This document shows, in pieces, positions 46,367 to 64,000 of a stretch of 64,000 bases of DNA. The stretch's first letter is position 1, and each line of letters begins with the position of its first letter. The stretch comes from Spirochaetaceae bacterium (lineage in GTDB: Bacteria > Spirochaetota > Spirochaetia > Treponematales > Treponemataceae). The stretch spans positions 39,340 through 103,339 of the forward strand of contig JAGARR010000053.1 of NCBI GenBank assembly GCA_017622135.1, written 5' to 3'. The translations under genes were made by a program, and so were the position numbers. The notes under the pieces are model-generated. The model saw nothing but the letters and a program-made list of their open reading frames with translations, did not search any database and had not been told where the DNA came from.

Positions 46367-47690
46367 CCCAGTCCTCCTGGCTCCAAGGAGACCTCTGGGT
46401 GGGCACCAGCTCCAGTGCTCCAGCAGACTCCCCCACCAGCTGGAAGGTCAAAAGTCCGGCCTGTACCTTGGCGGCTACCACTCGCTCCACTGCCCTATCC
46501 AGCAGGGCGGCAAAATCAGCGTCGCTCTGGCTCCTGTCAAGAATCAGCCGCAGCACGGAGCCAAACCGCTTCTCAGAGAGCATAATCACGTCAACGCCAG
46601 CTTCCAGGGCCAGCATCACCGCCTTGTGGGGGGGGAAGCCGTTCTTTTCCAGGGCCGCCATAAAAATATCGTCGGAAAGGATGAGCCCTCCATAGCCGAA
46701 ACGTTGACGCAGCACCTCCGTCACCCAAAAGTGGGAGAGGCAGGCGGGTGTCTCGGAATCCTGCTCTGGAGAGGCGGTGGTGCCACTGGTACTGATCCGG
46801 GCATGGGACATGAGGACCGCCCACGGATCGCTTTCCTGCAGCACCCGGCGGAAGGGCTCCAGATAGAACCGCTCCAGCTCCTGCTGCTCCAGGGCAATCT
46901 CCGGCAGTCCTGAGTGGGGGTCGTCGTTGGTGTTTCCGGGAAAGTGCTTGGCAACCGCTATCAGTCCCTGACTCTGGAACCCTTTGATGGCGGCACCGGC
47001 AAATTCCTCCATGGTTCCAAGACCCCCAAAGCTGCGGCTGTCCAGAAAGGTGCTGTTGTGCTGGCTTTCCGCCTCGGCCACCGGGGCAAGATTCATCTGG
47101 AAGCCCAGCAAGCTCATCTGTGTGGCCTGGGTGGCGTACAGGGATTGGGCCTGGCTGGAGGTGAGGGACTGGGCCACCTGCCGGGCCGAGGGCAAGGGGG
47201 AGGTTACAGAACGGAGGCGGTTCACCATGCCGCCCTCCTGGTCCACTGCCAGTAGTGGCGGAACCATGCCCCGCTGCTGGCTCCAGCTCTGGATGGAGGC
47301 GGTGAATTCCGCCACCTGGGCTGGTGTTTCGGCGATGTTGTATGAAAAGAAAAGATAGCCTCCGGGCAGCAGGGCCTCCTCAGGAAGGTCACCCCACTGG
47401 AATGACTCTACCGGGGAAAAGCTCCTGCTTCCCTCCAGATTCACCAAAAACAGCTGGCTGTACCGTTGCACCGGATCCAGAGACTGAACAAAGGCGCGGA
47501 TAGCCTCCTCTTGCTGACTGCGGGCCAACTCCTCTGGAGCGACTGCTTGTGGTGATGACACCTCATTGTTTGAATTGAAAGTATCTTTTGTTGGATTATC
47601 CTTGCCGCTGCAGGAAAGGACCAGCAGGGCCGTTGCGGTAAAAAACAGGAATCTTCCGATTCGTGTCATCTTTTTTCGTGCCATGGTCAC
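46305..47690 (-). CDS. Glycoside hydrolase family 3 lipoprotein (NagZ-like beta-N-acetylhexosaminidase)
   Basis: Lipobox LVLSCSG. GH3 motifs LLAVDQEGGMVNRL, KHFPGNTNDDPHSGLP and ILSDDIFM. Confidence 0.85.
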   Translation of the reverse strand: MTMARKKMTRIGRFLFFTATALLVLSCSGKDNPTKDTFNSNNEVSSPQAVAPEELARSQQEEAIRAFVQSLDPVQRYSQLFLVNLEGSRSFSPVESFQWGDLPEEALLPGGYLFFSYNIAETPAQVAEFTASIQSWSQQRGMVPPLLAVDQEGGMVNRLRSVTSPLPSARQVAQSLTSSQAQSLYATQATQMSLLGFQMNLAPVAEAESQHNSTFLDSRSFGGLGTMEEFAGAAIKGFQSQGLIAVAKHFPGNTNDDPHSGLPEIALEQQELERFYLEPFRRVLQESDPWAVLMSHARISTSGTTASPEQDSETPACLSHFWVTEVLRQRFGYGGLILSDDIFMAALEKNGFPPHKAVMLALEAGVDVIMLSEKRFGSVLRLILDRSQSDADFAALLDRAVERVVAAKVQAGLLTFQLVGESAGALELVPTQRSPWSQEDWDAVHQQGMELYCSVFGGTSE

Positions 47691-51791: not shown

Positions 51792-54700
51792 TCATACTTT
51801 AATCCCTATTTTGTTTCTTAAATCATCGAAAGAAGCAACGTGGTCATAGTGAACTTCCTTTGATGAAACCACATTGAACAGTTTTTTTGCACATTCAATT
51901 TTATTTGCTTCTATCTTTCTCAATTGCAAATCTTCCAAACGTCCCTTTGTTTCAGCAACAAAGAAAATATGTTTTACCCTATCCTTATCAAAGGCAATGG
52001 CCCAATCCGGTGCATAATTTCCCACAGGTGTTGGAATTTGGAATGAACGGGGAAGTCTTGCATAGACCACCACTTCTGTAGCACCATCAAGCTGTTCAAC
52101 AAATTTCCATTCAGTATCACTATCTACAAAAACTAAATCTTGAATGCACTTTGATGCAGGAAAAGCATCTTTATTAGATAAATTACCAGCTGTAAAAATA
52201 CTTGAATCATAAGTATCTGATAATTCATGATACTCAATATGCTCAACTATTTTTGTAGATTTTTGAGCATTAATGATATTGATTACATCACGAATAAATT
52301 TTTCTGGATTAAATCCAAATTGCTCCATCTCTTTTATTGTAAGTTGACTCAGAATTGTAGCCACCGTCTTTCTGGTTAGCTTGCAGCCTTTTGCAATATC
52401 ACCTACAAGGTCATATTTTACTGTACTAGATGTAGCTTTACGAACTATCTTTGATTCACTTTTCGTTTCACCAAAGGAAGAACCTGCTTTTAATTCAGCT
52501 TCATCCATTTTATCTTTTTGTTTTCCCACCTCCAAGGTATAACGCATAGGAGCAACATGAAGCTCCTTTTTAATTGCATCAACAGCATTGTTTATCAACT
52601 CTTCGCTATTAAACTGGCAAGTATATGAATACTTATGATTGATTTTATGCCACAACTCTTGGAAAATCTCCTTATCAAAGTTTCTGTTCAACGGATTTCC
52701 ATTTTCCCATTTTGGATGCTGTGCATTATCAATCATTCCAGAAAGCATGGAAGGATTATAAACGGCCTGAACAAGTCTTTGGATTTGTTCAAACATCTCT
52801 AGGCGAGCTTGGGGATTTGTTTGTATTTCATCCGGTAAAGTATATTCAATACTTTCAGGAATTCTTTGCAAACAACCGTTTTCTACCGACTCTTTATATA
52901 TTTGTGTTGGTTGATCATTTTCATCGATATAATCGTTCTTTAACAAATACTGATAAATGATTTTTGCTTGTTTTGCATCAAGTTCTATCTTGTAGCCACA
53001 AACAGTAATTACCTTACCGACAAAATAATCAATATCAGCAATTTTAGGGCGTGTATCAGAAAGTTCTGCTGCAATATCTTTTTGCAAACCATCCACAAAA
53101 TCTTTATAACTTTCACTGGCAATAACGGTGAGAGTATTAATTTCATGGACACTTTCGCCAAGGATATCTTTATCTTGACGTGCACCATCCTCATTTACGC
53201 AAAGTCGCATACCCCGCCCCACTTCTTGGCGACGAGAAACAGTGTTATCGGAATGCTTTAAAGTACAAATCTGGAATACATTGGGATTATCCCACCCTTC
53301 TCGCAATGCAGAGTGAGAAAAAATAAACCGTATTGGCACAGTAAAATCTAAGAGCAGCTCCTTTCGTTTAAGAATCAAATCATAAGTTGAAACATCCTCT
53401 TCTGACTCCCCATTAGAATTGGTTAATCTGCCTTTTTTATCCCGACTAAAATACCCTTCATGACAGGAACTAATTTCTTTTGCAGTTGGAAGCAAATACT
53501 TTTGATAATAACTATCAGGAGAAATATGAAGAAACTCATTCATGACATTGACATATTCCTCCTCAAACATTTGACCATATTCACCAGGAATTTCAGAACC
53601 ATCTTCTTCTGTAGCACGATATTTTGCAACTTCATCGATAAAGAAAAGAGAAAGAACTTTTATTTTCAATCCCTGCTCATAAAATTCCCTCTCCTTTTCA
53701 AAATGACTACGAATGGTTTCTCTAATTTGAACTCGACGAATATCCTTTTCTGCAACATTTCCTGTTACTTGTCCCATAAACAACATAGTAGGATCTGCAT
53801 TGGAACTTACAGACACATTAAATCTAACTGCATTTATTTCTGGCAATATTTCGGCAATGTAAATTCCCTTATATTCTTCCAAACCTTTTGACACAACATC
53901 AAGCTTATCTCCAGTTAAAAGTTTTACTGGAAGCCGTTTAATTCCGTTTGCTTGCTTTACATCAATTTCTAATTTTACCATTGGTGGTTGTTTGGGAGAA
54001 AGGATGATACTTTCTGCATAAATATAGGTTTGGGTTCCTGCTATATTGTCTAGCCTAAATCCTTTTACCTTAATTTTTTTTACGAGCTTTTGATTATATG
54101 CATCAAGAGCATCAAGACGATATATAAGATTATGCTGAACCTTGTGTGTAGCAGAATAATTTATTGTAAACAAAGGGATAAACTGCTTTAATGCATTTTG
54201 AGTTGCAGCACCACCCATTTTTTGAGGTTCATCCAAAATGAGAATAGGACGATTTGCAGCAATAACATCAATGGGGCGACGGCTAGCAAATTCATCACGC
54301 TTAGTATAAATAATACGTGCAGCCTCATTCCCCTTTCTGCCTGCTACATTTTTATCTTTGTTTAAGGAGCTATTAAATGCCTGCATATTGATTATCATGA
54401 CATTGATATCAGCACTGCTAGAATACTGATCCAGCAAATTCAATCTTTTGCTATTATAGATAAAGTAGCGGATTTTTTTTCCATAACGCTGCATGAAGTG
54501 ATCTTGGGTATATTCGAGACTTTTAAAAACTCCTTCACGAATGGGAAGAGAAGGTACAACTATAATGAACTTACTCCAACCGTAAACCTTGTTCAGTTCA
54601 TACATTGTATTAGTATACACATAGGTTTTTCCAGTTCCTGTCTCCATTTCAATATCAAAACTTGGACTGTTTGCTGTTTTTTCAATTTTTTCAGAATGAA

Positions 54701-54986
54701 TTATAAAATTCCTGTCTTGAATTTTATGGATATTATCTAAAAGTTCTTTATCACTTAAAATCAAATCTGCATTACGATATCCCGTATCTGATTCTTCCAG
54801 TTGTTCATCTTCTGTCTTTTGTTTTTCAAACAATTCTGTTTGGACGTCTTGTTTTACCAATTTGGGCATTAAACCTTTATCACGCAAATATTGTACTCCG
54901 TTTGCAGGTAACTGTCCCTCAAAGCAATCTACAAGTGAAGCTACGGCTTCTGTCTGATATTGTTGTATCTTAAAAGTAAACTTCAT
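51792..54986 (-). CDS. res: Type III restriction endonuclease subunit Res (SF2 helicase/translocase + PD-(D/E)xK nuclease)
   Basis: 1064 aa. Motif I ETGTGKTY, motif II ILDEPQKMGG, C-terminal nuclease YAPDWAIAF...FFVAETKG. Its ATG overlaps the stop of the mod C-terminal frame (TAATG at 54988-54984). Confidence 0.9.
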   Translation of the reverse strand: MKFTFKIQQYQTEAVASLVDCFEGQLPANGVQYLRDKGLMPKLVKQDVQTELFEKQKTEDEQLEESDTGYRNADLILSDKELLDNIHKIQDRNFIIHSEKIEKTANSPSFDIEMETGTGKTYVYTNTMYELNKVYGWSKFIIVVPSLPIREGVFKSLEYTQDHFMQRYGKKIRYFIYNSKRLNLLDQYSSSADINVMIINMQAFNSSLNKDKNVAGRKGNEAARIIYTKRDEFASRRPIDVIAANRPILILDEPQKMGGAATQNALKQFIPLFTINYSATHKVQHNLIYRLDALDAYNQKLVKKIKVKGFRLDNIAGTQTYIYAESIILSPKQPPMVKLEIDVKQANGIKRLPVKLLTGDKLDVVSKGLEEYKGIYIAEILPEINAVRFNVSVSSNADPTMLFMGQVTGNVAEKDIRRVQIRETIRSHFEKEREFYEQGLKIKVLSLFFIDEVAKYRATEEDGSEIPGEYGQMFEEEYVNVMNEFLHISPDSYYQKYLLPTAKEISSCHEGYFSRDKKGRLTNSNGESEEDVSTYDLILKRKELLLDFTVPIRFIFSHSALREGWDNPNVFQICTLKHSDNTVSRRQEVGRGMRLCVNEDGARQDKDILGESVHEINTLTVIASESYKDFVDGLQKDIAAELSDTRPKIADIDYFVGKVITVCGYKIELDAKQAKIIYQYLLKNDYIDENDQPTQIYKESVENGCLQRIPESIEYTLPDEIQTNPQARLEMFEQIQRLVQAVYNPSMLSGMIDNAQHPKWENGNPLNRNFDKEIFQELWHKINHKYSYTCQFNSEELINNAVDAIKKELHVAPMRYTLEVGKQKDKMDEAELKAGSSFGETKSESKIVRKATSSTVKYDLVGDIAKGCKLTRKTVATILSQLTIKEMEQFGFNPEKFIRDVINIINAQKSTKIVEHIEYHELSDTYDSSIFTAGNLSNKDAFPASKCIQDLVFVDSDTEWKFVEQLDGATEVVVYARLPRSFQIPTPVGNYAPDWAIAFDKDRVKHIFFVAETKGRLEDLQLRKIEANKIECAKKLFNVVSSKEVHYDHVASFDDLRNKIGIKV

Positions 54987-55411
54987 TATAGAACCTTCCT
55001 TACTGTGTCAGCAGAATATGTTGTGAATATCTGCTCAAAGTTTGTGGCGACACTATCACTGGCAAAGCCGCTGTCTCGCATTACAAAATAATATGGTTTT
55101 TCTTTTGCAATCTGAGTGATTGTTTCTTCTGTAATATCTTGATCAAAACAGGCTACAAGATAATTGTCGTTTACAAAATAAACTGTTTTTTCATTAACTT
55201 TTTTTGTTTTGATTTTGCTTGAAAGTTGTACGCCTAAATCAAGCATTACTTGGAACAGTAAATCTTCTGCGGTTCGGTCTGGTTTTACGTTGTCTTGAAA
55301 CAAGTCTTGTTTGTGTACATTCTCGGGGGAATAATACACATCCTGCATATTGGATGAATCGATTTTTAATACCCTGAAACCTATATCTAGGCTACTAGGA
55401 GCATCGCCTGT
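54986..55411 (-). pseudogene. mod: C-terminal portion of mod in the +1 frame, disconnected by the G9 tract (track ORF 54986-55348 plus its open in-frame extension)
   Basis: Reading from 55411 gives TGDAPSSLDIGFRVLKIDSSNMQDVYYSPENV... with no stop. The GFRVLKxDSSN pattern is the usual continuation of this methyltransferase family after the catalytic domain. Confidence 0.8.
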
Positions 55412-56901
55412 ACCCCCCCCCTGGTATCTTTAACCAAAAACTGATTTCCTGCACGGCGAATGCGTTCTTTGCCGATTTCACAGATGTTTTTAAAACCAGC
55501 TTTGTATGCTTCTGATTTTTCATTTGTTACTTCGGGAAGCTGCACCATAATGAATTTACGTTTGCCACCGTCTTCTGCGTTAAGTTGCATGACGGCATGG
55601 GCGGTTGTTGCTGAACCAGAGAAGAAATCAAAGATGATTGCATTTTCATCATGTATAGACTGAATAAGGAATTTTATTAAACTAGCCGGTTTTGGGAAGC
55701 TAAAGACTTTATTTCCAACAAGTGAATCAACTTCTTTTGAACCGTTTTCATTCATTCCTATGTCACTTGGTAAGGCAGTAGAAACACTTTTCAAAAAATT
55801 AGTTGTACCATATTTTTCAAATGCTTTTTTTCTGTCTTCGCTTTCAAATACTCTGTAGGCAGGTATAGAAATATTTAAGAAATCATAATCATCTGGAAAA
55901 ACAATTTTTCCTTTATCATAATAACTTGGAAATGTATCTTTTGTAATGGCCCATAATCGTTTTGGATTATATTTATACTCTTTTCCTGTTTTTGGATCAA
56001 TTAAATTAAAAGCAGAATTTGGACGCTGACTTTCAATTTTTTGAGTAGTTAAATCTGATAAACGCCATCTATCATTAGGATAATCTGGGCTTGAATAGTA
56101 TTTTCTTTCTACTGGCACACCTGCAAAGAATTTCTGAGATTTAGCATAAACAAGGACCCATTCAAAATCTTGTGAAATTCCGAATGGTACATCTGTTTTA
56201 GTAGTCCTTTTTCTGTAAGGTATTATTCCAGCAAAATTTACGCTTCCGAAAATCTCATTTCCAATATTAATAAGATTTTTTACTTCCTTATCATCTATAC
56301 TAATAAATATAACTCCATCGTCCGTTAATAGGTCTTTTGCGATTTTCAATCTTGGGTACATCATGTTAAGCCAGTCGGTGTGGAATCTTCCGTTACTTTC
56401 AGTGTTTGCTACAAGACGATTTCCTTCTCCATCTAGCTGCCCACTGTTTGCAATGTAATCATCTGCGTTTTGTGCAAAATCATCCTCATACACAAAGTCA
56501 TTTCCCGTGTTATAAGGTGGGTCGATGTAAATCATTTTGATTTTTCCAAGATATGTTTCCTGCAACAGTTTTAGAACTTCTAGGTTGTCGCCTTCTATGT
56601 ACAGGTTTTCTGTGGTGTCAAAGTTTACGCTTTCTTCTCGACAGGGACGAAGGGTTTTGTTTATTGGAGCATTTGCTGTAAGAATGGCTTGTTTCTTGTC
56701 TGGCCAAGTGAATTGGTAACGTTCCTCTCGACCTTCGACTACTTTGCAATTAATTTCTTGCATGAGAATATCTTTATCTATCGCACGTACTACATTTCCA
56801 TTTTCATCAGTGCTTTCTGTCACTGCATTTGGAAAAAGAACTGCCAGTTTTTCATAGTTTTCATTTGCTAAGTTTTTTGTTTGCATTTTGAGTTTATCCA
56901 T
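55387..56901 (-). CDS. mod: Type III (beta-class) N6-adenine DNA methyltransferase Mod, as read truncated at 504 aa by a frameshift in a G9 tract
   Basis: Motif IV IYIDPPYNTG precedes motif I FDFFSGSATTAHA (beta-class order). The variable TRD-like middle and the location directly upstream of res fit Mod. The ORF ends 8 codons after the homopolymer. Confidence 0.9.
   Translation of the reverse strand: MDKLKMQTKNLANENYEKLAVLFPNAVTESTDENGNVVRAIDKDILMQEINCKVVEGREERYQFTWPDKKQAILTANAPINKTLRPCREESVNFDTTENLYIEGDNLEVLKLLQETYLGKIKMIYIDPPYNTGNDFVYEDDFAQNADDYIANSGQLDGEGNRLVANTESNGRFHTDWLNMMYPRLKIAKDLLTDDGVIFISIDDKEVKNLINIGNEIFGSVNFAGIIPYRKRTTKTDVPFGISQDFEWVLVYAKSQKFFAGVPVERKYYSSPDYPNDRWRLSDLTTQKIESQRPNSAFNLIDPKTGKEYKYNPKRLWAITKDTFPSYYDKGKIVFPDDYDFLNISIPAYRVFESEDRKKAFEKYGTTNFLKSVSTALPSDIGMNENGSKEVDSLVGNKVFSFPKPASLIKFLIQSIHDENAIIFDFFSGSATTAHAVMQLNAEDGGKRKFIMVQLPEVTNEKSEAYKAGFKNICEIGKERIRRAGNQFLVKDTRGGVQAMLLVA
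55413..55421 (-). repeat. Homopolymeric G9 tract (C9 on the plus strand) inside mod; candidate slipped-strand phase-variation site
   Basis: Counted directly as tacccccccc + c. It is the only long G/C run I saw in the ~30% GC island, and it sits exactly at the frame break between the two mod ORFs. Confidence 0.85.
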
Positions 56902-56928
56902 TAGTTACTCCTTTTCTTGTGTAATGGT

Positions 56929-57003
56929 TATGTTGAAAAATTTGTTTTTTTTTCAACATAATGACCTACATATGTTGAAAAAATATAATTTTTTCAACAT
57001 ATG
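56929..57003. promoter_or_regulatory. Two adjacent AT-rich palindromes sharing the arm ATGTTGAAAAA / TTTTTCAACAT, between the fic stop and the mod start
   Basis: IR1 is TATGTTGAAAAA (56929-56940) with TTTTTCAACATA (56949-56960). IR2 is CATATGTTGAAAAAA (56969-56983) with TTTTTTCAACATATG (56989-57003). So there are four copies of one 11-mer half-site. Confidence 0.6.
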
Positions 57004-57006
57004 ATT

Positions 57007-58134
57007 CTATCCATGTAAAGTTCCCTGATTCATTAATAACTCTACCAATCTATCATTAATGTAATAATTACTTGTTCCAATCTTAATTTTCGAAAGTAAT
57101 TTTAATTCTACGATTAAGTCCAAATATTTCGATGCTGTAAAACGAGAAACATTCAAATCATTTTGAATAAATTCAATTTTTGTATAAGGATGATTAAATA
57201 AATTATTTAGTAATTCATGATTATATTTTGTTCCAAAAGCATCTCTTATTTTTCCTTTATATTCATCCATCAAAAATTTAATTTGTTGAACTAATTCAAC
57301 AGTTTGCTTAGCCGTTTCTTCAATCCCTTTCAATATAAAAAACACCCAATTTTCCCAATCAGCATTGTTATTACCAGAATTATCCCTTATCTTTTGAATT
57401 AGTGAATAATATTCAATTTTATTATGTGTAATGTATCTACTTAAATATAAAATTGGCAAATCTAATAAATCATTTACTACAAGATATAAAACTGAAATAA
57501 TTCTTCCTGTCCTTCCGTTTCCGTCATAAAATGGATGAATACTTTCAAATTGATGATGAATTATTGCAAGCTTAACAAGCGGATCAAGTTCCGATAAAGA
57601 TGAATCATTTATAAACTTTTCCAAATTTCCCATGTATTTTTCAATTTCCTGTAGAGTTTGAGGTGGCGTATACACCGTTTCACCCACATTATTTTCAAGA
57701 TGTGTGCCCGGTAAGGTTCTAAAACCAGCTTTATTTTGCTCCAGTTCTTGTTGTATTTCTTTTATGATACTATTTGTTAGAAGTTTAGCTTTTCTTACTT
57801 TTGAAAAACCTAATTGCATGGCTTGTCTATATCTCAATACTTCTTTTGCAGCAATTCGTTTAGCAGTTTGCTCTATTTCTTTCATATTTAAATCTGTTTT
57901 AAACAAATCATCTTGAGTAGTAACTATATTTTCAATTTCGGAACTATCTTTTGCTTCTTGCAAAATAAGTGTATTTAATAAAATTTGTTCATTAGGAATT
58001 GTTTTTGCAACTCCTTTCAATTCTGCTAAAGCACGAGAAGCCAAATTTTGTTGTTTTAGAATCTTTTTAGTTTCTAAATCTATGTTTAGCGGAAGAACAG
58101 GAATTTCATACAGACCTGTATTAATGTTTGTCAT
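57007..58134 (-). CDS. fic: Fic family protein (AMPylase-type; N-terminal inhibitory motif and C-terminal wHTH-like domain)
   Basis: 375 aa. Canonical Fic motif HPFYDGNGRTGR and upstream SSEIEN, which matches the (S/T)xxxE(G/N) auto-inhibition motif. Confidence 0.9.
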   Translation of the reverse strand: MTNINTGLYEIPVLPLNIDLETKKILKQQNLASRALAELKGVAKTIPNEQILLNTLILQEAKDSSEIENIVTTQDDLFKTDLNMKEIEQTAKRIAAKEVLRYRQAMQLGFSKVRKAKLLTNSIIKEIQQELEQNKAGFRTLPGTHLENNVGETVYTPPQTLQEIEKYMGNLEKFINDSSLSELDPLVKLAIIHHQFESIHPFYDGNGRTGRIISVLYLVVNDLLDLPILYLSRYITHNKIEYYSLIQKIRDNSGNNNADWENWVFFILKGIEETAKQTVELVQQIKFLMDEYKGKIRDAFGTKYNHELLNNLFNHPYTKIEFIQNDLNVSRFTASKYLDLIVELKLLSKIKIGTSNYYINDRLVELLMNQGTLHG

Positions 58135-58255
58135 TACAATACCTTCCTCAATCTAAGATATTTTCATCTATTTTGTTTAGTGAGTGCATTTTTAGGTGTG
58201 TCATGGGAGAGCTCCTTATCAGTTTCTATTTTCATCATCATATAGTCCACTTACT

Positions 58256-58264
58256 ATTCTACCA
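58256..58264 (-). promoter_or_regulatory. Extended -10 promoter candidate (TGGTAGAAT) upstream of fic
   Basis: Minus strand TGGTAGAAT, immediately after the stop of the TOPRIM-like gene and about 120 nt before the fic ATG. Confidence 0.35.
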
Positions 58265-58270
58265 TGTTTC

Positions 58271-59011
58271 TTATAACTTCTTTAGTTCTTTAAACACTTC
58301 TCGTATATTTTCATATTCTTCCCAAGGTATTTGGGTTAAAATCTTATATCGTTGACGAAAATGATTTTTAGTTGGTTCAATACGAATCGCAAAATAAGCA
58401 TATAATTTTGCTTTTGTTACAAATCCCCTATGAGTAAGATATTTTTTTTCAGGATCTGCACTATCAACAAATTCTTTTGCTTTTCTTATGATTTCAGCGT
58501 CATAAGAATCTGCTTTAGAAACAGAGTCCAACAAAAAAGTTTCTAAAGCACCATTCTCATTAAATGGAATTATTAGAAGCAATAATTCACAATTAAATTG
58601 ATTTTGAGAGGCATCTTTAAAAGTTAATGATGTCCAATTGTTATTACTACTTATCGGAATATTATTTTTTACAGAATCATTTAATTCAGATACAATTCTT
58701 GTTTCAACACAGTCATCATCATTATCTGTAAGAACGACAATCTTTGTATATCGCTCACTATCTTCTATTTCATTTTCATTTTTACGAATTACTTCTTCAA
58801 AAACAGTTTTTATATTTCCACATCCACCACAAGAAATAATTGTAAGCATATTAGAATCTTTAAAAAAATCACGACTTAGCGAATTGTGAACATGTGAGTT
58901 AAAGGAAGGATTGGAATTTTGTTTCGAATCTTTCCATCCATTGACTTTAATCATAAAGTGCTGAAGAAAAACAAAATCTGTTTCTCCTTCACAAATAATT
59001 ATTGATTTCAT
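58271..59011 (-). CDS. TOPRIM-type / RloB(AbiLii)- or AriB-like protein, partner of the upstream ATPase
   Basis: 246 aa. The N-terminal IIICEGETDFVFL (conserved Glu) and VVLTDNDDD (DxD) form a TOPRIM-like pair. The start overlaps the ATPase stop (TAATG). Confidence 0.65.
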   Translation of the reverse strand: MKSIIICEGETDFVFLQHFMIKVNGWKDSKQNSNPSFNSHVHNSLSRDFFKDSNMLTIISCGGCGNIKTVFEEVIRKNENEIEDSERYTKIVVLTDNDDDCVETRIVSELNDSVKNNIPISSNNNWTSLTFKDASQNQFNCELLLLIIPFNENGALETFLLDSVSKADSYDAEIIRKAKEFVDSADPEKKYLTHRGFVTKAKLYAYFAIRIEPTKNHFRQRYKILTQIPWEEYENIREVFKELKKL

Positions 59012-60126
59012 TATCTGAGCTCCTGATTAAAGTTATAATCTGCCTCTATTGCTCTTTCTGCACTCAGTTTTCTTGCAATATTTTTTCCATTTTTTTTGTA
59101 TAGAGTAAAAAGAGTAATATCACCTTTTAATTCAATATCTGAATTGAGTGCAAGAATTTTTTGTAAAGCTTCTTTACTATGAGTGGTCAAAAAAAGTTGA
59201 ATATTAAGTTTCTTACAAGTCTTTAGAATCCACTCATAAATTTTTGTCATTGCTGAGGTGTGAATCGCAGTCTCAAACTCATCAATCAATAAGACTCCAT
59301 TTTTTACATGAAGAATAGCAGTGGCTAGTTGTATAACTTTTTTTAATCCATCACCATACACAGTAAGAGGAAGTAATTTTCCCATAGATTTTGAACGAAT
59401 TTGATAACTGTTTTTTAGTGGAAATGGAATATCATATTCTCTAATAGTTGGAACAATATCTAGAATATCTTCATCAAAAAGTCGTAAAACAGATAGAAAT
59501 TCCTCTTGTTTTTCATTTTCTTTTAATATCTTAGTTATCTCAGTATCATAGTCTTCAGTATATACACAGGGTGGAATATACACTATTTCATATTGGGTAT
59601 AAGGTTTTCTAATATTTTCTACGAAACCATCAAAGCGAGTTACATTAAAAACACCAAACCCATCAACAAGCTTTTCGTTGTAAAAAAAATCAGTATGCAA
59701 TTCTACCAGCTCTGCTTCAGAAAATTCTTCTTCAGGACTACAGCCAATGTGAGCCTCTTCACAGTATTCCCTTTTAAATACTTTGTTTTTACTGATAGAA
59801 CCTTTTAATTCTACAGACGAAACGCCATTTTTGTCATCTTCTTTTTTATATGCTATACGCATTTCACTTTCAGCAATCGAATATAAATTTTTTATCGACT
59901 CAAAAACAGTTTGAGAAGGGTTGGGGTATTTTGTAGTTCTGCCTAATCGACTCCAAACTACAGGTGAACAAGGATTGCCTACCGTTTGGAGCACTTCAAG
60001 AACACTGGTCTTTCCACAATTATTGTCACCAGTAAAAATATTGACCCCAGTGAAGCTTTCTAAATGAAGATTATGTATACCTCTATACGTTTCAATGTTC
60101 AATGACTTGACGTGAATATTTCCCAT
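59011..60126 (-). CDS. ABC-type AAA ATPase (AAA_21-like; AbiLi/RloA- or AriA-like)
   Basis: 371 aa. Walker A GDNNCGKTS, Walker B LLIDEFETAIH, and LTTHS (H-loop). Confidence 0.8.
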   Translation of the reverse strand: MGNIHVKSLNIETYRGIHNLHLESFTGVNIFTGDNNCGKTSVLEVLQTVGNPCSPVVWSRLGRTTKYPNPSQTVFESIKNLYSIAESEMRIAYKKEDDKNGVSSVELKGSISKNKVFKREYCEEAHIGCSPEEEFSEAELVELHTDFFYNEKLVDGFGVFNVTRFDGFVENIRKPYTQYEIVYIPPCVYTEDYDTEITKILKENEKQEEFLSVLRLFDEDILDIVPTIREYDIPFPLKNSYQIRSKSMGKLLPLTVYGDGLKKVIQLATAILHVKNGVLLIDEFETAIHTSAMTKIYEWILKTCKKLNIQLFLTTHSKEALQKILALNSDIELKGDITLFTLYKKNGKNIARKLSAERAIEADYNFNQELR

Positions 60127-60164
60127 ATTTCACCACACCTCTTCTACAAGTATAAAGCCACCCC

Positions 60165-60173
60165 ATTCTATCA
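60165..60173 (-). promoter_or_regulatory. Extended -10 promoter candidate (TGATAGAAT) upstream of the ATPase gene
   Basis: Minus strand TGATAGAAT, 38 nt before ATG 60126, with AGGTG as SD in between. Confidence 0.35.
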
Positions 60174-60197
60174 TATCCGTAGCTTTTCTTCTATCTT

Positions 60198-60806
60198 TCA
60201 TAAACCATTCAACTCATCTTCCAAGTTTCGCTTCTGACTGACAAGTTCAAACTTCTTCTTTGGCTGGATTTCTTTCCTTGCAAGTTTTTCAAGTTTAGCT
60301 ATCTCTTTCTGAAGCTTTTCTTTTTTTTCTTTTAATTCTATGTTTTCAGAAAGAGAAAGATTTGAATCCCATTCTCCACCTTCTATTTTTTTAATGATAT
60401 TTTCCCACACTTCATCAAAGGTAAGCCCCTGTAATTCAAGCTGAACTTGTGCTTCAGGTATCCAGGCTGTGGTAAACATTCTTTCACAAAATACAGCCAG
60501 CTGGATTTCTTCTTCAAACTGAAGTGCAAACACAAGATTTTGTGGTATCAGCTTTGCAATTCTTTCTATATTCTTGTAATCAATGATTTTTTTCTTTAGC
60601 CTTACACTAAGAACATAAAAACTTTTTACCTTGGAACCTACTCTAATTGCAGGAATTGTTCTGCTACTAATCTCGTTCACAATATCTATCCTGCTAATAT
60701 CCAAGTCAAATTTCGTTTGTTGTGCATTATTCAACTGAAACTTTTTATAAATCTGAGACTTTGGTAAGTTTTTTTGCAATTGAGTGATTTCTGGAAGATT
60801 AAGCAT
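60198..60806 (-). CDS. DUF4391-like protein (assignment from memory of the family pattern; needs HMM confirmation)
   Basis: 202 aa. LPKSQIYKKF..., IDIVNEIS..., VLSVRLKKK..., ERIAKLIPQNLVFALQF..., LELQGLTFDEVWENIIKKIEG, then a Lys/Glu-rich coiled tail. 8-nt overlap with the helicase gene. Confidence 0.6.
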   Translation of the reverse strand: MLNLPEITQLQKNLPKSQIYKKFQLNNAQQTKFDLDISRIDIVNEISSRTIPAIRVGSKVKSFYVLSVRLKKKIIDYKNIERIAKLIPQNLVFALQFEEEIQLAVFCERMFTTAWIPEAQVQLELQGLTFDEVWENIIKKIEGGEWDSNLSLSENIELKEKKEKLQKEIAKLEKLARKEIQPKKKFELVSQKRNLEDELNGL

Positions 60807-63800
60807 ATGTACCCTCTTTTATAACTAAAAAGCAAATAAGTTCAAAGTCATCTAAACCATTAATTTGTCCATGTTTAAAATCAACAGAATCACCACTTAA
60901 GAATAAATCCATATCACTTTCGTCTTTAACTTCTATAATTGAGGCAATTGAATCACCCAAAAGCTTGTTGAAGAATTTCATGTTACGGCCATCCTTTGTC
61001 TGTTCATTAAATTGTTTGTACACTTCTACAATAGGTTCATCTTGACCCTTGCACAGTAACCTCATTTTATCTAACATATTTTTGGGATTTAAATGATTAC
61101 ACACCACAGTACCATCTTCTGCAATATAAACCATGTAAAATGGGTGTAGGCAATTTTGATTATCAATGTTTACATTATTGTTTCTATTTTTAAGAATATA
61201 AATAACACCAGAAGGACAATCTTCTGAGGCCTTTACAACTGCATGAAGTCCAAAAGGAGTGGCATCTAAATAACCATTATCTTTAACGTATTCTAACAAA
61301 TCTAAGCGAAACTCATTTAAACCTAAGTCCATAATACTGATTCCAGTATTCATTTCTTCAATATCCACCACTTCCTCTTTTAATTTTTGTAATTGAGCCT
61401 TTCTGTACTCCAGATCCTTTTGGTTATCATCCAAAAGATTGTCGTCTGCTGTAGCAGTCATATCCACAATCTTCATACGAGTTTCTACTCGGTTTTTAAG
61501 ATTTATATATTCATCTAAAGTTAAATCTGGCCAGAAATTTACCAGCTGAATTACATTATTTTTACTACCAATTCGGTCAATACGACCAAATCTCTGAATA
61601 ATACGAACAGGATTCCAATGAATGTCGTAATTAACGAGATAGTCACAGTCCTGCAAATTTTGGCCTTCCGAAATACAATCCGTGGCAATAAGTACATCAA
61701 TACTTCTTTCATCTCCAGGATAAATTACATCCTTATCTTTTGACATTGGAGAAAAATACGTCAAAACAGCATTCAAATCACATTTAAACTTTTCCAAGGT
61801 AGTTTTTCCTTCAGAAGTTCCACTTATTTTTGCTGAATTGAGAGAGTATTTTTCCTTTACATATACGCTCACTTGCTCATAAAGATAATCTGCCGTATCA
61901 GCAAATGCTGAAAAAACTATAATTTTCTTATTGTCTGAATTGATAGGTTTTTCTATTTTACCACTTATTATTTCCAGCAATTTTTGCAATTTTGAATCCT
62001 TTGCTGGAGTTATATCTTCAATGAGGCTTTCTAAGCCTGATAAAATATTTGCGTCATTCGTTAAATCATTAAGCCATGAAATATAATCCATGTCCTTCAG
62101 ATCTATTTTGACTTTCTTGCCAATGGTAAAAATATCACAGGTATTCTGATCATCAAAATCATAGTCCCTGTCAAAAGACATATCTTGAATAGCAATCTCT
62201 GAAGTTGAATCATGAGAATGAAAATTGTTCACCATTTCAATCGTGTGTTGTACATATTCTTTTACCCGTTGAATAGTTAAACGAAAAGAATAAACAGAGC
62301 TTTCCAAACGCTTTAGTAGATTTATCGCCATCAACCGACGGACTCCTAATTCTCGTCCCATTTGGTCAAAACCACCAGCATCATCAATTTCATACTTCGC
62401 CCTTTTACTTGGATGAATAAACAATGAGGGAACATACACTGTCAGTTTTAATTTTTCTAACTCTTCAAAAATCAAGTTAAATGTTGTTTCATTTTCCCGC
62501 TCTGTCAGTGGTGTATGTATAGAAATCGGCTTCAATCTTTTAGGAAATGTCCCAATGTCTTTTGTATCATAATATTTTTGAATATGCTTTCTTGAACGAG
62601 CTATAGTAACACTATCAAGCACTTCAAAAAAATCAAAACTAAGCATTGCCAAAAGATTTTCTGTTGTTCGATCTGCTGTTACCAACTGGCTCCATTTATT
62701 AAATGCAACTTGAGCTTGGCGGAATATATCATCAATAGATTTTTTTGTTTTTAATTGTGAGTCAATATTTTCTACGACTCCTTCATAGGCTAATGCAAGT
62801 TGATTTTTTAAATCGATAAATCGGTTATTGACTGGAGTTGCAGAAAGCATAAGTACTTTTGTTTTCACCCCCTGCTTAATAACCTTGTTCATCAACTGCA
62901 TATATCTATTTTCTTTTGTATTTGAATGAGTTCCAATACCATTCCTGAAATTGTGAGATTCATCGATAACAACTAAATCATAATTTTCCCAATTTATAAA
63001 AGCTAAGTCATTTCCATTAGAGTATCCAGAAGTTCTATTTAAATCTGTGTGAAATAACACATCATATCGCAATCTGTCGTCTGAAATGGGATTGTTCTTG
63101 TAATTGTTTTTATAGATATTCCAGTTATTCGAAAGTTTTTTGGGGCAAAGAACAAGTACCCTATTATTACGGCTTTCGTAGTATTTTATGACAGCAAGTG
63201 CAGTGAATGTTTTTCCAAGTCCCACACTATCAGCAAGAATGCAACCATTATATTTTTCTAGCTTATTAATAATTGCTAAACAGGCATCTTGTTGAAAATT
63301 ATACAATTTTGACCATACTTTGCTGTTTCTAAAACCTGTATCTTCTTTTGGTAGTACATCTTCATTTATATCATCTAAAAATTCTTTGAAAATATTATAG
63401 AGCGTTACAAAATAAATAAATTCTGGTGCATTTTCATTATATGCAGATGCGATATTCTCTATTACTTGTTCAGTAACATCCTGCATAATAGTTTTGTTCT
63501 CCCAGAACTGTTCAAATAACTGTAAAAAACTAAGACTCATAGGAGCTTTCATTTTGGTAATTGCAAAAGCTGCATTGTTACCTTTTTCTACTCCAAGTTC
63601 AACGGCAGTGAATTCTTTTACTGGATTATAGCTTACCTCATCAACATTAATAAAACTTGGCATAGCCTGTTGTGTCACATTTGACTTGAAAATTGCCTTT
63701 TCTTTGATCCATTGTGCACATTCTTTTGCAATAGCTTTTTGACTTAACTCATTCCTTAATTTAACTTCAAATTCTGTTCCATACAAACTTCTTTCTCTAT

Positions 63801-63987
63801 TTAGACGTGGAATATAAAACTCTCGTTTTTCTTTCTTTACTTTTTCAGCAAGAAATGTGGGGGAAGTAAAGATGAAACGGAACTCGTCAATATTCTTAAG
63901 TTCATTTTGTAACTCTTGATATGCATAAATAGAAAAACAAGCAGCTGCAATGGACACTTTACTACTAGGCCTTAATTCTTCTTTCAT
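60799..63987 (-). CDS. SNF2/Rad54-family helicase (DEAD-like N lobe + HELICc), with an N-terminal extra domain; the 5' end is probably beyond the window
   Basis: Motifs ILADSVGLGKTFTA (I), VVIDESHNFRN (II), MLSATPVNN (III) and ATDCISEGQNLQDCDYLVNYDIHWNPVRIIQRFGRIDRIGS (V-VI). The frame stays open upstream of ATG 63987 to the window edge. Confidence 0.9.
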   Translation of the reverse strand: MKEELRPSSKVSIAAACFSIYAYQELQNELKNIDEFRFIFTSPTFLAEKVKKEKREFYIPRLNRERSLYGTEFEVKLRNELSQKAIAKECAQWIKEKAIFKSNVTQQAMPSFINVDEVSYNPVKEFTAVELGVEKGNNAAFAITKMKAPMSLSFLQLFEQFWENKTIMQDVTEQVIENIASAYNENAPEFIYFVTLYNIFKEFLDDINEDVLPKEDTGFRNSKVWSKLYNFQQDACLAIINKLEKYNGCILADSVGLGKTFTALAVIKYYESRNNRVLVLCPKKLSNNWNIYKNNYKNNPISDDRLRYDVLFHTDLNRTSGYSNGNDLAFINWENYDLVVIDESHNFRNGIGTHSNTKENRYMQLMNKVIKQGVKTKVLMLSATPVNNRFIDLKNQLALAYEGVVENIDSQLKTKKSIDDIFRQAQVAFNKWSQLVTADRTTENLLAMLSFDFFEVLDSVTIARSRKHIQKYYDTKDIGTFPKRLKPISIHTPLTERENETTFNLIFEELEKLKLTVYVPSLFIHPSKRAKYEIDDAGGFDQMGRELGVRRLMAINLLKRLESSVYSFRLTIQRVKEYVQHTIEMVNNFHSHDSTSEIAIQDMSFDRDYDFDDQNTCDIFTIGKKVKIDLKDMDYISWLNDLTNDANILSGLESLIEDITPAKDSKLQKLLEIISGKIEKPINSDNKKIIVFSAFADTADYLYEQVSVYVKEKYSLNSAKISGTSEGKTTLEKFKCDLNAVLTYFSPMSKDKDVIYPGDERSIDVLIATDCISEGQNLQDCDYLVNYDIHWNPVRIIQRFGRIDRIGSKNNVIQLVNFWPDLTLDEYINLKNRVETRMKIVDMTATADDNLLDDNQKDLEYRKAQLQKLKEEVVDIEEMNTGISIMDLGLNEFRLDLLEYVKDNGYLDATPFGLHAVVKASEDCPSGVIYILKNRNNNVNIDNQNCLHPFYMVYIAEDGTVVCNHLNPKNMLDKMRLLCKGQDEPIVEVYKQFNEQTKDGRNMKFFNKLLGDSIASIIEVKDESDMDLFLSGDSVDFKHGQINGLDDFELICFLVIKEGTYA

Positions 63988-64000
63988 ACTTTGACCAAGC

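Follow-up and report, generated by a model that had tools for sequence, protein, structure and literature searches.

Phase-variable type III DNA methyltransferases are best known from host-adapted pathogens. Restriction-modification systems of type III hemi-methylate an asymmetric site, and their cleavage requires ATP and two such sites in inverse orientation. We report here on a mod gene and the adjacent res gene in a stretch of 64,000 nucleotides from a Spirochaetaceae bacterium (assembly GCA_017622135.1, contig JAGARR010000053.1, positions 39,340 to 103,339), hereafter called the window, in which a run of nine guanines divides mod between two reading frames. In the published groups of mod genes with a poly-G repeat, a G[9] tract counts as phase-variable, the threshold being a mononucleotide repeat of at least nine; such tracts switch at about 10^-3, and the repeat arises first, the target recognition domain (TRD) diversifying afterwards (PMC5909438). 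In EcoP15I, the two Mod subunits dimerise through their N-terminal domains (NTD) and methyltransferase (MTase) domains and form a stand-alone methyltransferase; ModA contacts Res extensively through its C-terminal domain (CTD), and Res also touches the MTase domain of ModA (PMC4490356). Efficient production of the Res subunit of EcoP15I, and its stability, require the expression of Mod (PMC3333885).

The tract of the window reads C9 on the forward strand at 55413-55421, thus G9 on the coding strand of mod, which is the reverse strand. The 5' frame of mod (55387..56901, reverse strand) has 504 codons and encodes the NTD, which serves dimerisation, followed by motif IV (DPPY), by the TRD and by motif I (FFSGSATT); it crosses the tract as ACC AGG GGG GGG GTA and stops 8 codons past the run with the out-of-frame tail VQAMLLVA, its end being ...KDTRGGVQAMLLVA. 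The 3' frame (54986..55414, reverse strand, 142 codons and a stop) is open from the tract down to 54986, reads GTGDAPSSLDIGFRVLK... or GTGDAPSSLDIGFRVLKIDSSNMQDVYY..., and encodes the remaining linker and a C-terminal alpha/beta domain, the CTD. Its stop codon ends on the very A that opens the res ATG (TAATG at 54986). The tract itself encodes the glycine run of the linker between MTase domain and CTD, codons 496-499 of 638, and the two frames are in register only at G7, G10 or G13. These are the ON lengths, with products of 637-639 amino acids; at the remaining lengths, which are OFF, a stop follows 5 or 8 codons after the tract. These frames and the overlap with res are as an earlier reading of the same DNA, made from the letters alone and called here the sequence-only reading, had described them; of its statement that either one more G or two fewer yields a single mod of 638 codons, the first half is exact (G10, 638 amino acids), and the second is off by one (G7, 637 amino acids).

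Could such a run occur by chance? Shuffles of the whole window, at 50% GC, contain a mean of 1.9 G9 runs, and at that scale the tract is not significant. With host DNA at 55-60% GC this comparison misleads, and we used instead a first-order Markov expectation for the 12.2-kb island at 33% GC in which mod lies: 0.003 runs of nine or more are expected in the island, and 0.0009 within mod. Within the island, the G9 run is thus far from chance expectation. The sequence-only reading had called the run out of place in a gene of about 30% GC; the GC content of mod is in fact 35.8%. The stops that close the wrong frames near the tract, considered as a designed feature, were rejected: they are unremarkable because 36% GC predicts one per dozen or so codons.

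If the tract is a switch, its length should differ between related populations. From the DNA of 30 loci belonging to this gene group we took the tract lengths directly; the loci come from independent metagenome assemblies of several studies (XIEF21-1, LIUQ22-1, TONG22-1, ERZ and Logan runs), produced by several assemblers (megahit, SPAdes, Logan), and were retrieved by exact-protein look-up in the ENA, Logan and NCBI collections, so that the sampling is biased. Among the source samples are SAMN15830108 (G9), SAMN15830131 (G10), SAMN15830135 (G12) and SAMN15830005 (G7). All lengths from G7 to G12 were read: G7 in L005 and G10 in L002, both ON; and, all OFF, G8 in L007, G9 in the window, L001, L008, L010, L011, L017-19, L109, L110, L113 and L115, G11 in L003, L004, L106, L107, L108, L111, L112 and L114, and G12 in L006 and L009. 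One lineage has an upstream flank longer by 1 nucleotide, and there G9 is ON (L014 and L016, 649 amino acids) and G10 is OFF (L012 and L013).

The borders of the tract mutate too: L106 (at 2125), L110 (at 971), L111 (at 908) and L113 (at 540) carry, in that order, ACC-G12, ACT-G10, CCAA-G10 and a 3-nucleotide TGT insertion after G9. The pure run is consequently longer or shorter in some populations. These four loci, with their border substitution or insertion, were counted by frame-equivalent length, from which the literal count of G's differs in L106 (12), L110 (10) and L111 (10). The short contigs L011, L013, L015 and L020 begin 36-300 nucleotides from the tract site; a mixture of tract lengths in one sample might have broken the assembly graph at such places. 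Exact DNA-pattern scans for the flanks of the tract found nothing in JGI metagenome contigs or in GTDB representative genomes, and of the collections covered, those of ENA, Logan and NCBI alone contain the locus.

The proteins of the group agree with the tract lengths: ON forms continue as RGGT... or RGGGT..., and OFF forms end in RGG(G)VQAMLLVA or RGG(G)YRRCS. A full-length protein, P0001, is 100% identical and reads ...KDTRGGGTGDAPSS..., that is, G10; the 504-residue form, P0005, occurs on five contigs; P0037 ends in RGGGYRRCS, the frame of G11; and further members of the cluster carry RGGT (G7, ON), RGGGVQAMLLVA (G12) or RGGHKRCS (G8), the last two followed by a stop. Full-length proteins of 637 or 638 amino acids are thus known for the ON lengths: P0001, P0122 and P0121. 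In the window, the 504-residue protein is identical to NCBI MBO5125799.1, labelled 'MAG: Spirochaetaceae bacterium'. Of the 3' frame, gene callers retain only the portion that starts at an ATG (54986-55348, 120 amino acids), and the cluster of this C-terminal fragment alone counts about 49 contigs.

Some of this DNA differs at the run and nowhere else. Locus L006, a G12 from another sample, aligns with the window over 18,617 base pairs with 0 mismatches and a single 3-nucleotide gap, at the tract; L009, also G12, has 0 mismatches across 5.9 kb; and L002, which is G10 and ON, has 5 mismatches and a 1-nucleotide gap across 9.4 kb. Between related loci, tract indels far outnumber substitutions.

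The frame beyond the tract is, judging from its substitutions, under purifying selection: between the window and the L017 lineage, both of which are OFF in the assemblies, it has 18 synonymous and 5 non-synonymous changes, for a dN/dS of 0.06. It follows that full-length Mod has to be produced with a frequency sufficient for selection to act on it. The res gene is intact as well, with a dN/dS of 0.08-0.13 and a product of 1064 amino acids in every full-length cluster member listed (14 of the 15 listed, the remaining one being a partial entry).

Mod itself varies in its centre. In the four alleles that were aligned in full, the first ~135 and the last ~200 amino acids are about 95-100% identical; in 40-column windows of the centre, which lies between DPPY and FxGxG, identity drops to 5-20%. 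Clustering of this central segment gives six TRD alleles, mutually 37-49% identical, with one pair at 83%; the tract is present in all six, and four of the six are found in both ON and OFF forms. Conserved ends around an exchanged TRD are the allele structure of a phasevarion-type mod.

Taken together, these observations lead us to consider it very probable that the tract is a slippage-driven ON/OFF switch of the full-length Mod, and that the window copy is OFF. The mod of the window carries a G9 inside its open reading frame, the repeat of at least nine on which Atack et al. 2018 base their definition, and the repeat differs in length among populations, shifting mod in and out of frame. On these grounds the gene may be called a phase-variable mod of the phasevarion type; the term phasevarion in the sense of a defined regulon is not claimed. 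In the proposed mechanism, slipped-strand mispairing during replication would add or remove G's; at G7, G10 and G13 the methyltransferase core and the CTD would be joined in one frame; the full-length Mod would then assemble with Res into a Mod2Res1 complex able to restrict; and the change would be reversible within a clone. The central claim of the sequence-only reading, a phase-variable type III mod caught OFF, is upheld by the G7-G12 range in related loci, by the ON proteins P0001, P0122 and P0121, and by identical DNA differing only at the run.

Some observations weigh against this switch or against the consequences drawn from it. The loci are consensus assemblies of different samples, so that what they document is polymorphism between populations and not reversible switching within one clone. 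The ON to OFF tally is roughly 1:2 to 1:3, which under biased sampling is no estimate of frequency. The effect that loss of the CTD would have on the binding of Res is extrapolated from EcoP15I, at about 24% identity, and the structural match of the isolated CTD to EcoP15I, given below, is supportive but modest.

The assignment to type III draws on several sources. Mod matches the Pfam family N6_N4_Mtase (E 2.8e-32), and the repaired protein matches the PADLOC model MTase_III PDLC03634 over its full length (E 4.5e-221); its closest sequences in the PDB are all type III Mods: 6k0w (E 3e-64), EcoP15I 4zcf (E 6e-54) and Mbo45V. The motifs come in the order of the beta class, with IDPPYNTGND at about residues 126-135, then the variable TRD, then DFFSGSATT at about residues 425-433. 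Downstream, res (51792..54986, reverse strand, 1064 amino acids, its ATG overlapping the mod stop) encodes a superfamily 2 (SF2) helicase-like motor and a C-terminal endonuclease domain, with Pfam matches to ResIII and RE_endonuc and a PADLOC match to REase_III (E 1e-274). Against the NCBIfam model of type III endonucleases, Res reaches 369.7 bits, short of the equivalog cut-off of 564, and so belongs to the same family as that model and to a different equivalog. From these matches, mod and the adjacent res appear to form a complete type III restriction-modification system.

The ON form, modelled with AlphaFold2 (AF2) at a pTM of 0.70, has the four-domain architecture of type III Mods: NTD, MTase, TRD and CTD. 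The top matches of this model in the PDB are EcoP15I Mod 4zcf_A/B (E ~1e-35, TMq 0.56-0.64), then 6k0w and Mbo45V Mod, the best match of the full-length model being EcoP15I Mod with E 3.5e-36 over ~690 aligned columns. Modelled alone, the CTD again retrieves EcoP15I Mod first (E 2.4e-3; for 4zcf_A, TMq 0.53 and rmsd 3.3 A over 113 columns). In the numbering of P0001, which is the full-length numbering minus 5, the last long MTase helix spans 468-489, the RGGG lies within a segment of pLDDT below 50 at 488-497, and a well-folded alpha/beta CTD runs from 504 to the end. The tract is thus predicted to fall in a disordered linker, with the last MTase helix before it and the first CTD strand after it. 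Across 120 homologues this linker, about residues 486-505 (window 55397-55456), between GKERIRRAG and LDxGFRVLK, has 19-80 residues of unrelated sequence; such hypervariability between domains may be why a glycine-coding G run could arise there.

We also considered, and rejected, a CTD expressed on its own: at G9, a TAA just upstream of the tract closes the CTD frame, and the first start in that frame (ATG 55348) lies 3' of LDIGFRVLK, a conserved strand, and lacks a Shine-Dalgarno sequence.

What the OFF state does depends on the fate of the truncated protein. In either wrong frame the OFF product still contains the NTD, both catalytic motifs (IV and I) and the TRD, and lacks the CTD; the statement of the sequence-only reading that the 504-residue product keeps both catalytic motifs and loses its C-terminal domain is consistent with the frames and with the position of the linker in the AF2 model. 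If the CTD holds Res as it does in EcoP15I, restriction is likely lost in the OFF state, since the domain in contact with Res is missing from the OFF product. That same reading added a loss of translational coupling to res, which is overstated: res has a Shine-Dalgarno-like sequence of its own, AAGGAAGG, at 54994..55001 on the reverse strand, 7 nucleotides upstream of its ATG, so that translation of Res need not rely on ribosomes arriving from mod. A promoter and terminator scan of 54700-57200 found sites no commoner than in shuffles, and is uninformative on a separate res promoter.

Our judgement is evenly balanced on the classical possibility, in which the truncated Mod is non-functional or degraded, so that OFF abolishes both methylation and restriction, and may alter the expression of other genes. 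This is how characterised phasevarions behave, the TRD allele series is typical of phasevarion mod groups, and the dependence of the EcoP15I Res on Mod expression (PMC3333885) points the same way. Yet the frameshift leaves the catalytic core and the TRD untouched, and res is fully conserved, beyond the need of a purely regulatory methyltransferase.

Another possibility, already raised by the sequence-only reading and in our view somewhat less likely, is that a stable Mod of 504 residues, deprived of its CTD, still methylates and cannot hold Res, in which case the tract would toggle restriction and leave modification in place. The genome would then stay protected, and switching restriction back on would be safe. 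The points that suggest it are the retained domains of both OFF products, a tract exactly at the boundary between MTase domain and CTD, the division of labour in EcoP15I, where Mod dimerises through its NTD and MTase domains and methylates on its own while the CTD of ModA contacts Res, a res that is intact, under purifying selection and provided with its own Shine-Dalgarno sequence, and the placement of the system in a defence island. However, truncated proteins are frequently unstable, and the Res of EcoP15I also touches the MTase domain of ModA, so that losing the CTD may not abolish binding. Moreover, the linker, given its range of lengths across homologues, may simply be the sole site that tolerates a glycine run, and the position of the tract need not be adaptive.

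One step further, the position of the tract might itself be functional, cutting between the catalytic core and the Res-contacting CTD to make a 'restriction-only' phase switch. We regard this as doubtful; selection for such a cut would be in keeping with the conservation of the linker tract in several mod lineages of Treponema type. If true, OFF cells would be M+ but R-, giving an opening for DNA uptake, and would avoid self-restriction on switching back ON.

Slippage could also act at the level of expression, the RNA polymerase or the ribosome slipping so that one DNA length yields both truncated and full-length Mod, instead of or atop the DNA switch. Long homopolymers can cause transcriptional slippage, dnaX makes two products from one gene by slippage at this level, and the process would make OFF states leaky. 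We find it improbable: as the designed mechanism it would keep one tract length, and tract length is not conserved; the variation in DNA is directly observed and sufficient; and no frameshift-stimulating structure was seen, although no search was aimed at one.

Homopolymers are error-prone, and the window comes from a metagenome-assembled genome (MAG): the true gene could be an intact G10 mod, with G9 as an artefact of sequencing or assembly. We judge this very improbable. Six lengths spanning 5 nucleotides recur over independent samples, studies and three assembler types, and at least five independent assemblies of one and the same allele agree exactly on G9. The uniform G10 or G7 that the sequence-only reading had associated with homopolymer error is ruled out, given lengths of G7 to G12 across independent assemblies. 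Two other runs serve as controls and do not vary in this way. The A9 in the spacer between mod and the upstream Fic gene (56945-56953), ~1.5 kb upstream of the tract, reads A9 in all loci checked that do not belong to the diverged L017 lineage, whose three members all have A8; the G8 run at 46628-46635 in a gene of glycoside hydrolase family 3, GH3 (C8 on the coding strand, in frame, encoding FPPH) is constant in the three covering contigs, those of the window, L001 and L006. With A9 and C8 stable, homopolymer miscalling fails to explain the G7-G12 spread.

Finally, a fixed frameshift pseudogene in a decaying restriction-modification remnant, which the split window copy and the majority of OFF copies among the retrieved contigs might suggest, is hardly credible in view of the ON copies with 100% identical protein (P0001, P0122), a downstream frame that has no stops at a dN/dS of 0.06, the res intact in 14 of the 15 listed cluster members (one partial) and the ON and OFF forms within four alleles, and the fixed, decaying form of it that the sequence-only reading had considered is ruled out by length variation, ON proteins and identical DNA differing only at the run.

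The tract is older than this lineage. More distant mods from MAGs labelled 'Treponema sp.', at 67% identity and in other gene contexts, carry a G9 at that linker site too, and the linker upstream of it is a different one (...TTIQT-GGG-TKDSAPS...). In GTDB representative genomes, only one of the 80 nearest loci has the tract at this site, L026, an uncultured Treponema MAG. In the mod of an uncultured Erysipelotrichaceae (RUG087, L031:3086-3094), at 53% identity, there is an unrelated C9 near codon 29, at the 5' end, which looks like an independent gain of a homopolymer in the same gene family. Some distant tract-bearing systems of Treponema type have extra genes between mod and res, namely open reading frames of 194 and 57 amino acids in L021-L024 and Fic and RhuM genes in L025; mod and res are not translationally coupled there.

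We now turn to the surroundings of the system. The composition of the window changes along its length: up to ~51.7 kb it is host DNA of 55-60% GC, and from there to its end an island of 31-35% GC. The island, 51792-64000, adjoins an ABC-transporter operon; it is a defence island of low GC, acquired horizontally by a rumen-type member of the Spirochaetaceae (Treponema-like). The neighbours of mod and res are defence genes or candidates according to Pfam and PADLOC: SoFic (57007-58134), PDC-M38B (58271-59011), PDC-M38A (59011-60126), DUF4391 (60198-60806) and an HKD and Snf2 helicase gene (60799-63987). The PDC-M38A/B pair consists of an AbiLi/AriA-like ATPase and a DUF3226 TOPRIM-like protein; at the same chromosomal site of the related genome L003, an AAA_13 gene stands instead of this pair.

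The intergenic region between Fic and mod (56902..57006, reverse strand) contains the ribosome-binding site of mod, AAAGGAG, as well as two palindromes that are conserved, and probably holds an operon boundary or control region. The palindromes, at 56930-56959 and 56972-57000, are AT-rich and near-identical (ATGTTGAAAAA...TTTTTCAACAT), one of them contains the A9 run, and both are kept in all lineages; they could be a terminator or an operator.

Self-restriction at switch-back is a standing problem of phase-variable restriction-modification systems. If the truncated Mod is active but unable to hold Res, this locus would be a natural example of restriction switched independently of modification, and such uncoupling would explain how self-restriction is avoided. 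Whatever the OFF state does, the switch would extend a known mechanism to uncultured rumen spirochaetes, and six tract lengths with six specificity alleles indicate that public metagenome assemblies alone can document switching. It also has a practical side: annotation should join the split mod, which appears as a 504-residue 'methyltransferase' and a 120-residue 'hypothetical protein', into one phase-variable gene, and should not call it a pseudogene. A full-text literature search gave no report of a phase-variable type III mod in Treponema, neither 'Treponema' nor 'spirochaet' occurs in the main text of the survey of G[n] mod groups (PMC5909438), and literature searches on 6K0W and on truncated Mod gave nothing useful.

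How does the locus compare with the described systems? With the G[n] mod groups (PMC5909438) it shares a G tract of at least nine inside the mod frame, a length that sets the frame by strain or population, conserved N- and C-terminal regions that flank a swapped TRD, here with six alleles, and a cognate res downstream. It differs in its host, an uncultured rumen-type Spirochaetaceae/Treponema. The tract lies here at codon 496 of 638, in the linker between MTase domain and CTD, so that the whole catalytic core and the TRD are retained when OFF, a position for which no uniqueness among the published groups is claimed.

EcoP15I (Mod2Res1, PDB 4ZCF; PMC4490356) resembles it as a beta-class N6-adenine methyltransferase with the domains NTD, MTase, TRD and CTD, and with a Res made of a helicase-like motor and an endonuclease domain. 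The two are only ~24% identical, and EcoP15I lacks a repeat tract and does not phase-vary; that the CTD holds Res is known from EcoP15I alone, and this role is carried over to the present Mod by extrapolation.

The modA, modB and modD phasevarions of Haemophilus influenzae and Neisseria likewise switch a type III Mod ON and OFF stochastically through a repeat in the reading frame, and have many TRD alleles. Their repeats are tetra- or pentanucleotide units, in contrast with the homopolymer found here, and their regulatory role was shown experimentally, whereas the present locus is known from sequence alone. Its setting in a defence island and its intact res point at least as much to defence as to regulation.

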